This document shows, piece after piece, positions 25,784-26,052 of a stretch of 64,000 nucleotides of DNA (positions are counted from its first letter, which is position 1; each line of letters begins with the position of its first letter). The position numbers and the translations under genes are program-made. Under the pieces are notes generated by a model that saw only the letters and a program-made list of their open reading frames with translations, was not told where the DNA came from and did not search any database. Source of the stretch: an uncultured bacterium (GTDB lineage: Bacteria > Patescibacteriota > Saccharimonadia > UBA4664 > SCTI01); the NCBI GenBank assembly GCA_963721685.1, contig CAVRJJ010000001.1, positions 4,555 through 68,554 of the forward strand. Reading direction: 5' to 3'.

Positions 25784-25812
25784 TTGACATATAGTTGTTT
25801 GTATGATAGAGT
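25784..25812 (+). promoter_or_regulatory. strong sigma70-like promoter TTGACA-17-TAGAGT
   Basis: perfect -35 hexamer; GGAG RBS follows, upstream of the 68-aa LPQTG ORF. Confidence 0.45.
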
Positions 25813-25845
25813 TTAAAAATTCTATTAAATAATATATGTGGAGAT

Positions 25846-26052
25846 ATGTCAATGACTAACCAAGGTGGACTGGGTGGCGGCGTTACGTCATCTATTACTG
25901 GAACTATCGCTGGCGTTGGTGGTGGAGCGGTTTTACTGCCCCAGACTGGTGGAAGCTTTGTGCTGACAGCCCTCGTTATTGGGGCCATCGCGCTTACCGC
26001 TATGCTTGCGAGTATGTTGGTTTCTAAAACGTTACGCAAAACGATTAGTTAG
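25846..26052 (+). CDS. 68-aa Gly-rich mini-protein consisting essentially of an LPQTG sortase sorting signal
   Basis: '...GGGAVL-LPQTG-GSFVLTALVIGAIALTAMLASMLVS-KTLRKTIS': LPXTG + TM + basic tail, with no N-terminal signal peptide. Confidence 0.45.
   Translation: MSMTNQGGLGGGVTSSITGTIAGVGGGAVLLPQTGGSFVLTALVIGAIALTAMLASMLVSKTLRKTIS

Follow-up and report, generated by a model that had tools for sequence, protein, structure and literature searches.

A mini-protein family reduced to an LPxTG sorting signal is linked to one clade of PgaC-like polysaccharide synthase genes

Sortase substrates are by definition proteins that bear a signal peptide and display a cargo domain on the cell wall. What, then, is encoded by a gene that specifies a sorting signal and little else? 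The question is raised by a stretch of 64,000 nucleotides (nt) from an uncultured Saccharimonadia bacterium (assembly GCA_963721685.1, contig CAVRJJ010000001.1, positions 4,555 to 68,554), hereinafter the window, in which the open reading frame (ORF) 25846..26052 of the forward strand encodes 68 amino acids (aa), MSMTNQGGLGGGVTSSITGTIAGVGGGAVLLPQTGGSFVLTALVIGAIALTAMLASMLVSKTLRKTIS. A previous reading of the DNA alone, referred to below as the original prediction, regarded this mini-gene as a sorting signal lacking a signal peptide and offered three interpretations: a CscD-like small anchor using non-classical export, a decoy or regulatory peptide for sortase, or a membrane micro-protein. We find that the mini-gene belongs to a family whose linkage to one clade of family 2 glycosyltransferase (GT2) genes is conserved. 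Its product is probably a sortase substrate that is inserted, without a signal peptide, in an N-out/C-in orientation and is functionally coupled to the GT2 exopolysaccharide synthase. The first of the three interpretations, a small anchor with non-classical export, lies closest to the evidence, once the likeness to CscD is removed.

When the 68-aa protein alone was used as query, a word-index homology search returned no match. An exhaustive HMMER scan of 1.84 billion representatives recovered two 65-aa homologues (E = 1e-9 and 1e-7), and profile searches raised the number to 17, all of them 57-66 aa long, 24-65% identical to the window protein and derived from independent samples; these are the related mini-ORFs for which the original prediction had proposed a search. 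The family splits into two subfamilies. Subfamily A comprises the window protein and eight homologues of 65-66 aa with the pattern MT(N/S)QG..TGT(I/V)xGVG..LP[Q/K/E]TG, a transmembrane segment and SK..R, whereas the nine members of subfamily B (57-61 aa) are of the LPNTG type, with MYQ..(V/I)LPNTGGN, a transmembrane segment containing VGxAILLT, and FVAKKAxKA. Across the 18 proteins, the sole invariant positions are M1 and the L, P, T and G of the motif, with x varying among Q, K, E and N, as would be expected of a sortase motif maintained by selection. Automated annotation labels single members as 'LPXTG-motif cell wall-anchored protein' or 'hypothetical protein', and one relative comes from an uncultured Ca. 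Saccharibacteria metagenome-assembled genome (MAG).

Several lines of evidence bear on whether so short an ORF is a gene at all. The ratio of non-synonymous to synonymous substitution rates (dN/dS) is 0.09-0.21, the closest pair (L001 vs L002) having the lowest value and the window a value of about 0.2 when compared with either L002 or L006. Synonymous sites are saturated (proportion of synonymous differences, pS, 0.68-0.77; of non-synonymous differences, pN, about 0.3), and these values indicate purifying selection. The forward frame alone stays open in nine of nine loci. An antisense ORF, 25686..26039 (117 aa), was rejected as a candidate, being open across the span in none of the nine loci, the window included. 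In 300 dinucleotide-shuffled versions of the window, ORFs that combine LPxTG with a hydrophobic segment and a positively charged tail are expected at 0.023 per window (one such ORF in 7 of the 300, two in none), compared with the two that are observed, both of which are real. The circumstance that the original prediction named as fatal, namely, that a frameshift or sequencing error would expose the ORF as the 3' end left over from a larger gene, is ruled out by the 17 homologues of like length and start and by the gene's own ribosome-binding and promoter sites. We consider it nearly certain that the mini-gene is a real gene.

The expression signals agree for the most part with the original description. 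The promoter (TTGACA, a 17-nt spacer and TAGAGT) lies where it was claimed to be and is the only forward-strand site with 10/12 matches in a 2.8-kb scan (24800-27600). In all five window-type loci, a 17-nt-spacer promoter with a TG-extended -10 box is located 32-72 nt before the mini-gene ATG, and a promoter-like site is present at eight of the nine mini-gene loci with DNA in hand. Both the GGAG ribosome-binding site and the 68-aa ORF exist as described, but translation more likely starts at the second ATG, yielding a 66-aa product (25852..26052), because GGAG ends 8 nt before ATG 25852 and only 2 nt before ATG 25846, and because every homologue begins at the second Met position, with MT(N/S)QG in the window type. 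At seven of eight homologous loci, (A)AGGAG or GGAG is found 6-8 nt before the ATG; the ribosome site of L095 is weaker, consisting of the purine-rich AAGAAAGG. An in-frame TAG at 25807-25809, after which the frame is open from 25810, blocks any N-terminal extension, as had been stated. A Logan contig of ERR12037361 carries the mini-gene as a called gene.

The predicted product is indeed a full tripartite sorting signal, in which the LPQTG motif, a transmembrane helix and the basic tail KTLRKTIS follow one another without a passenger domain, although the helix had been undercounted: 25 residues, not 23, separate the G of LPQTG from the first Lys. This length is a family trait, since 25 residues from the motif G to the first Lys/Arg are found in 18 of 18 members, as are a basic tail of net charge +2 to +4 and an N-terminal segment (hereinafter N-tail) of 17-31 residues with a net charge of 0 +/- 1. 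In subfamily A, the polar pattern of the helix, AM(L/F)xSM..SK, is largely conserved, and the N-tail, with its MTNQG and TGT(I/V)xGVG motifs, has a conservation of 0.59. AlphaFold2, run on the 18-sequence alignment, predicts a helix over residues 34-65 (predicted local distance difference test, pLDDT, about 78-80) and no globular fold for the N-tail (pLDDT about 47-54). Pfam and NCBIfam match the mini-protein to no family apart from the LPXTG anchor, and no relative was found in the PDB. The relatives score on both sides of the TIGR01167 cut-off of 15.9 (18.6 for P0010 and 17.4 for P0002, but 14.6 for P0006), and P0010 scores 17.7 against a cut-off of 20 for PF00746.

No Sec signal peptide was found on the window mini-protein by the charge and Kyte-Doolittle hydropathy of its N-tail and by the position of the upstream stop, in line with the original prediction. 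Lys and Arg are absent before the LPQTG motif, and the best 15-residue hydropathy mean of the N-tail is 1.37, whereas the signal peptide of a canonical LPQTG protein encoded elsewhere in the window has a value of 2.47; in general, N-tails reach 0.9-1.5 and helices 2.2-2.8. The possibility that the N-tail is a cryptic signal peptide was rejected for want of a basic n-region and for its low hydropathy. The missing signal peptide appears to be no real obstacle, because a neutral N-tail of 17-31 residues followed by a helix and a basic C-terminal tail constitutes an N-out/C-in arrangement. Short N-tails of the Pf3 coat type insert through YidC without a Sec signal. The N-tail would accordingly be the portion that faces outward and is transferred by sortase. 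For subfamily A, a helical hairpin (N-in, loop-out, C-in) is a possible alternative topology, which would still place LPQTG outside.

The gene directly downstream of the mini-gene, as stated in the original prediction, encodes a GT2 (PF00535, 103.5 bits). TIGR03937 (PgaC_IcaA) aligns with it over the full length at 143 bits, compared to an equivalog cut-off of 422 bits, and TIGR03111 (XrtG-associated glycosyltransferase) is the second model; in the PDB, only generic GT2 domains are matched. Across the GT2s linked to mini-genes, PgaC_IcaA is the top NCBIfam model, with full-length alignments at 143-161 bits, below the equivalog cut-off, and the XrtG-associated model ranks second. The motifs DDG(S), DAD, (T)ED and QRxRW are those of processive beta-glycan synthases. 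The window GT2 contains DDG, DAD, ED and QRYRW; DAD, (T)ED and QRxRW are present in all complete linked GT2s, and DDG(S) in eight, being missing from a second GT2 copy in L088. In subfamily A, the GT2 gene lies directly 3' of the mini-gene in all four loci with enough flank (window, L002, L006 and L095), with products of 412-420 aa that are 67-71% identical to the window GT2 and gaps of 46 nt in the window and 22 nt in L095, whereas the upstream genes are unrelated from locus to locus. Between the mini-gene and GT2 of the window, no terminator was found and the intergenic structure is non-significant (z = 0.25).

In subfamily B, the order is mini-gene, sortase, GT2 in five lineages (L007, L088-90, L091/92, L093/94 and L096). 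The first of these loci to reveal the sortase, L007, was found by a genome scan with a GT2 query. The cassette sortase (PF04203, 64-81 bits; 64 in L007, the other values being from precomputed gene tables) spans 8285..8866 in L088, is anchored by an N-terminal transmembrane segment and carries the motif LQTCTG, but reaches no class cut-off, the best being class D at 37.7 vs 140 bits. Furthermore, an orthologous CE4 (NodB-type) polysaccharide deacetylase is encoded directly 5' of the mini-gene in four of the five lineages (L007, L088, L091/92 and L093/94); in L088, this protein also holds CBM_4_9 domains according to a Pfam scan, and GH10-like hydrolases are encoded near the cassette in two subfamily B lineages. 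A neighbour-joining tree places the mini-gene-linked GT2s in a single clade, distinct from 30 other GT2s. As a negative control, 80 metagenomic loci with more distant GT2 homologues (at most 38% identity to the full-length protein, with short matches of 94-102 residues reaching 44%) contained neither a mini-gene nor a sortase gene. Overall, the linkage of the mini-gene to a single GT2 clade is conserved.

Three further observations concern the subfamily B loci. The cassette GT2 of L096 (3654-4932) is interrupted and occupies two ORFs (115 and 312 aa), reflecting either a frameshift or decay of the synthase, with the mini-gene and sortase intact. L088 (584-1311) and L091 (2457-3130) encode a second, housekeeping-like sortase with the motif LTIYTC, followed by an overlapping ORF of 34-36 aa with a single transmembrane segment (MKEWHRT...), which recalls SafA, the small membrane partner of the actinobacterial SrtA (PMC9282373), but lacks its FPW motif. 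The second L088 GT2 of the linked clade (1321..2610, reverse strand) adjoins this second sortase gene.

Strong intrinsic terminators, with GC-rich stems of 13-14 bp and a U-run, are located between the mini-gene and the sortase gene in L088 (8193-8245) and L091 (8192-8230), implying more transcription of the mini-gene than of sortase and GT2, which would be reached by read-through; this would be the layout of an abundantly made substrate that precedes its machinery. The 5' leaders of the subfamily B mini-genes (L088 7905-7975, L091 7910-7975 and L007 9083-9115) contain a long hairpin (z = -2.5 to -3.7) that is followed by a U-run and, immediately 5' of the Shine-Dalgarno sequence, by a conserved UUAAUUAACC(G/C)A; they resemble an attenuator or an unknown leader element. 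Rfam does not match this element in L088 and L091; more broadly, no Rfam family was detected in the window at gathering scores and nothing credible in L088, L091, L093, L002 and L095.

Table 1. Features of the mini-gene, its product and associated genes in the window.
Feature	Position	Strand	Description
Sigma-70-type promoter	25784..25812	+	TTGACA 25784-25789, 17-nt spacer, TG-extended TAGAGT 25807-25812; score 10/12
Shine-Dalgarno GGAG	25840..25843	+	8 nt 5' of ATG 25852
Mini-gene coding sequence	25852..26052	+	66 aa + stop; alternative start 25846, giving 68 aa
N-tail	25852..25935	+	28 residues, MTNQGGLGGGVTSSITGTIAGVGGGAVL; Gly/Thr/Ser/Ala/Val-rich, net charge 0
LPQTG sortase recognition motif	25936..25950	+	Residues 29-33 of 66; L, P, T, G invariant in 18 members
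Transmembrane segment	25951..26025	+	25 residues, hydrophobic, GSFVLTALVIGAIALTAMLASMLVS; best 19-residue Kyte-Doolittle mean 2.30
Basic cytoplasmic tail KTLRKTIS	26026..26049	+	Net charge +3
GT2 synthase	26099..27337	+	412 aa, membrane; PgaC/IcaA-like processive polysaccharide synthase; starts 46 nt past mini-gene stop
Canonical LPQTG surface protein	40392..41216	-	274 aa; signal peptide, Cys-containing domain, Pro/Thr/Ala-rich stalk, LPQTG

These features suggest the following sequence of events. The 66-aa product would insert into the membrane without a signal peptide, its single helix and positively charged tail keeping the C-terminus in the cytoplasm while the short uncharged N-tail is flipped outward. 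A membrane sortase would then cleave between T and G of LPQTG, as motif conservation and gene linkage suggest; the enzyme would be encoded outside the window here and by the dedicated gene beside the mini-gene in the sister subfamily. The resulting Gly/Thr-rich N-peptide of 32 residues would be passed, as an acyl-enzyme, to an amine of the envelope, by default a peptidoglycan precursor, and the 34-residue C-peptide beginning with GGSF would stay in the membrane. The reaction would finally serve the neighbouring synthase, either by tethering or organising a polymer of the N-acetylglucosamine (GlcNAc) type at the wall or through an action of the retained transmembrane peptide on the synthase; the linkage to both synthase and deacetylase argues that it is a GlcNAc-type exopolysaccharide that is served. 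Our default reading is that the peptide becomes anchored to peptidoglycan and tethers or organises the polymer, but any specific chemistry downstream of the cleavage is unlikely to be correct as proposed.

Other sortase substrates bear on which sortase would act on the window protein. The canonical, signal-peptide-bearing LPQTG protein at 40392..41216, for which Pfam has no family, implies that a sortase system reading LPQTG operates in this genome, the sortase presumably being encoded outside the window. A homologue of this protein with an IPQTG motif is encoded directly 5' of the mini-gene in L095 (2452-3126). The relaxed x of subfamily A (Q/K/E) matches these canonical substrates (LPQTG in the window, IPQTG in L095), which fits a hand-over of the mini-protein to a housekeeping sortase; subfamily B has a dedicated sortase and an LPNTGGN motif that does not vary.

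A stronger version of the proposal would have the cassette of deacetylase, mini-LPxTG protein, sortase and PgaC-like synthase produce a covalent conjugate, of peptide with polysaccharide or of polysaccharide with the wall. A free amine on the GlcNAc polymer, once partly deacetylated, would resolve the LPxT-acyl intermediate of the sortase or, in another form, the mini-peptide would be the covalent tether between polymer and peptidoglycan; the mini-gene and GT2 pair of the window would be a reduced form of the cassette, served by a housekeeping sortase. We regard this version as rather improbable.

Certain observations weigh against a sortase substrate coupled to the synthase. The window mini-protein scores 15.5 with TIGR01167, just below the cut-off. 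The nearby sortase that the original prediction suggested looking for is adjacent to the mini-gene in the sister subfamily, but no sortase gene was found within the 64-kb window (best hidden Markov model match, E = 0.5). The window likewise has no homologue of the cassette CE4 deacetylase, nor was a deacetylase domain detected in the window ORFs scanned, and subfamily A loci in general are without an adjacent sortase or deacetylase gene, leaving the GT2 link to carry the coupling there. A wall-anchored low-complexity peptide of 17-32 residues has no obvious function by itself. In subfamily B, the transmembrane segment and tail have a mean pair identity of 0.61 and the N-tail one of 0.40; a classical substrate discards the former part, and its higher conservation better fits a membrane subunit. 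Finally, the sample is small (18 proteins, with about nine independent lineages for which context is available), and some lineages are of uncertain taxonomy: NCBI labels one B-type record as Ca. Limnocylindria, so that the distribution of the mini-gene may extend beyond Saccharibacteria or the MAG may be mislabelled.

The membrane subunit is the rival that survives best, although we hold it to be unlikely. Here, the mini-protein would be a small partner of the synthase, similar to IcaD/PgaD in function, whose helix binds GT2 and activates or gates it; cleavage at LPxTG would only mature the protein, removing the N-tail and leaving a Gly-Gly N-terminus, or would couple its activity to the availability of sortase or lipid II, and the wall-attached N-peptide would be a by-product. 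Besides the subfamily B identities given above, which are embodied in stretches such as VGxAILLT and FVAKKAxKA, the strict adjacency to a PgaC/IcaA-like GT2, the fixed hydrophobic length and the largely conserved polar positions of the subfamily A helix are compatible with such a role, and a passage of PMC11502775 cites work on Streptococcus gordonii in which cleaved sorting-signal C-peptides signal by acting on membrane partners. However, a plain subunit needs neither an invariant LPxTG nor a dedicated sortase gene, and the strong terminators after the mini-genes of L088 and L091 suggest production in excess over the synthase. Moreover, the mini-protein has one helix instead of two and no sequence similarity to IcaD/PgaD, with the LPXTG anchor as the only Pfam/NCBIfam assignment.

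The precedent of C-peptide signalling can also be turned towards the second interpretation of the original prediction, a sortase-directed regulatory or decoy peptide that titrates or reports sortase, or whose C-peptide signals to a membrane sensor, without taking part directly in polysaccharide synthesis. The mini-protein, as a full sorting signal that carries no cargo, looks as such a peptide would be expected to, and small transmembrane partners of sortases, such as the SafA mentioned above, are known. The window does encode a histidine kinase (35354..36295), though 9 kb from the mini-gene, and the conserved linkage is limited to GT2, sortase and deacetylase, with none to a sensor kinase; the well-conserved N-tail of subfamily A would be needless for a pure decoy. 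We found no specific support for this interpretation and think it quite improbable.

The CscD-like anchor fares worse still. It would tether to the wall the filament components encoded upstream (cohesin/dockerin-like and Pam-pilus-like, 18622..25093), and the mini-gene does lie 3' of a run of genes for secreted or transmembrane-anchored proteins, some with weak matches to CPR_Pam_pilin_C; one of them (21025..22038, 4 kb upstream of the mini-gene) weakly matches the WxL-interacting-protein family PF06030 (24.8 vs 27.3 bits) and ends in a transmembrane segment, as in csc/WxL loci. Yet of the two neighbours that the original prediction gave for the mini-gene, only GT2 is immediately adjacent: the nearest upstream are a membrane ORF of 144 aa and the frameshifted gene of a DUF6496 protein, with the cohesin-like gene ending further upstream at 23429 and a 555-aa gene at 25093. 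Those two neighbours separate the mini-gene from the run, and it has its own promoter. In L001/L002, L006 and L095, the upstream neighbours are unrelated while GT2 is always downstream, and the few loci available show no enrichment of Pam- or csc-type clusters around mini-genes. With no signal peptide on the mini-protein, no WxL domain or partner detected and no conservation of the upstream cluster beside the mini-gene elsewhere, likeness to CscD has very little to recommend it.

That the ORF is non-functional, i.e., a chance ORF, what is left at the 3' end of a decayed surface-protein gene, or a leader ORF translated ahead of GT2, is hardly credible: its shortness and low complexity, the empty first word-index search and the score just below the LPXTG model cut-off might suggest so, but there are 17 homologues of like length and start, purifying selection is indicated, the motif is invariant and the chance expectation is low. 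The leader ORF was rejected specifically because, in the sister subfamily, the sortase gene and terminators separate the mini-gene from GT2. A pilin was also considered and rejected, as the N-tail contains no Lys in any window-type member and has no predicted fold.

The surroundings of the mini-gene in the window contain features of interest in their own right. Directly 5' of the mini-gene promoter, the gene for a small basic DUF6496 protein (25610-25771, forward strand) is split, such that VAAKYGKKAQEKVAENLHDE and a stop (25610-25672) overlap MMNKHERKLKNRKQAIAAGLNQARQAGGKVPSKNSK (25661..25771). The second piece matches positions 32-57 of PF20106 at 35.6 bits, and the repaired fusion matches positions 1-57 at 44 bits; the gene is either a pseudogene or affected by a sequencing error. 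Further upstream, six secreted or transmembrane-anchored proteins (398, 366, 337, 272, 177 and 555 aa) are encoded in a run on the forward strand (18622-25093). Matches to CPR_Pam_pilin_C (NF058581) are found in 18622..19818 and 19897..20997; the 337-aa protein at 21025..22038 has a WxLIP/Fn3-like domain which, with its C-terminal transmembrane segment, recalls the PamC/D chaperones; and a dockerin-like protein (22038..22856), a cohesin-like protein (22896..23429) and an OmpL47-type barrel (23426..25093) follow. Although all these domain matches are below or at the cut-off, the run is probably a Pam-type pilus operon of bacteria of the Candidate Phyla Radiation (CPR), to which the Pam pilus operon is specific (bioRxiv 10.64898/2026.03.03.709456). 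Preceding this run are a gene on the forward strand (13596-16382) for a 928-aa phosphoketolase (XFP N, middle and C domains) with an unusual fusion to a C-terminal CoA-binding domain and, after it, an AMP-forming acyl-CoA synthetase-like gene (16379..18130).

Our literature searches (Saccharibacteria sortase/LPXTG; sortase with poly-N-acetylglucosamine (PNAG) and glycosyltransferase; LPXTG with YidC) found no description of the mini-protein family or of the cassette, and a family of probable sortase substrates devoid of both passenger and signal peptide and coupled to a PgaC-like synthase appears to be undescribed. Sortases are reported in more than half of CPR genomes (PMC6744442). A conserved family made of the sorting signal alone, which has to be exposed on the outside of the membrane with no signal peptide to direct it and whose genes are tied to a synthase of the PNAG/chitin type, suggests that ultra-small episymbionts of the CPR/Saccharibacteria type, the envelope biology of which is little known, possess a module for building their surface. 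If processing of the mini-protein is real, it would provide a concrete and testable link between sortase chemistry and exopolysaccharide assembly, with a substrate small enough for chemical synthesis. Should even the conjugate prove true, a glycan would be the partner in a natural reaction of sortase, and CPR bacteria would have a new means of attaching exopolysaccharide to their surface.

Comparison with known systems places the mini-protein among, but apart from, several of them. With the classical LPXTG substrates (TIGR01167, PF00746), it shares LPxTG, some 25 hydrophobic residues after it and a short C-terminal tail that is basic, and relatives of its gene adjoin a sortase gene. Unlike those substrates, the mini-protein lacks signal peptide and passenger and is made up entirely of the sorting signal and an N-tail of 17-31 residues, the sequence of its helix after the motif is conserved, and its gene is tied to that of a polysaccharide synthase. 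CscD of the csc/WxL clusters of Lactobacillales is likewise a small LPXTG protein encoded near surface-complex genes, but has a signal peptide and conserved csc/WxL partners (cscA DUF916, WxL), and the mini-protein has neither. Sortase-assembled pilins differ in possessing a pilin-motif Lys and a CnaB-type fold, neither of which is seen or predicted here, and the cassette sortase is below the class C cut-off. The Pf3 coat protein (44 aa) shares the short N-tail without positive charge, the single helix and the basic C-terminal tail, an analogy without sequence relationship.

On the polysaccharide side, IcaD/PgaD, the partners of the PNAG synthases IcaA/PgaC, are similarly small membrane proteins encoded beside a GT2 of this kind, and the CE4 deacetylase of the sister-subfamily cassette would parallel the role of IcaB/PgaB. 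The mini-protein, by contrast, shows no similarity to them, has one helix in place of two, is encoded upstream rather than downstream of the synthase, and comes with a sortase motif and a sortase gene. The GspA-LcpA-SrtA system of Actinomyces oris (PMC6381275), where a sortase substrate carries a glycopolymer to the wall, offers a precedent for coupling sortase to glycans, although GspA is a full-size protein with a signal peptide that is glycosylated by an LCP enzyme, and no LCP gene was seen here. The nearest conceptual parallel is found in the PEP-CTERM/exosortase (EpsH) systems, which were tied to exopolysaccharide loci by Haft et al. (2006; PMC1569441), and in the XrtG-associated GT2 (TIGR03111). 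In these, too, a tripartite C-terminal signal and a transpeptidase are linked to exopolysaccharide glycosyltransferases, a link which has been suspected, yet unsettled, since 2006. Given that the enzyme here is a sortase (PF04203), the motif LPxTG rather than PEP, and the substrate a single tiny protein per cassette, the resemblance is one of analogy and not of homology.

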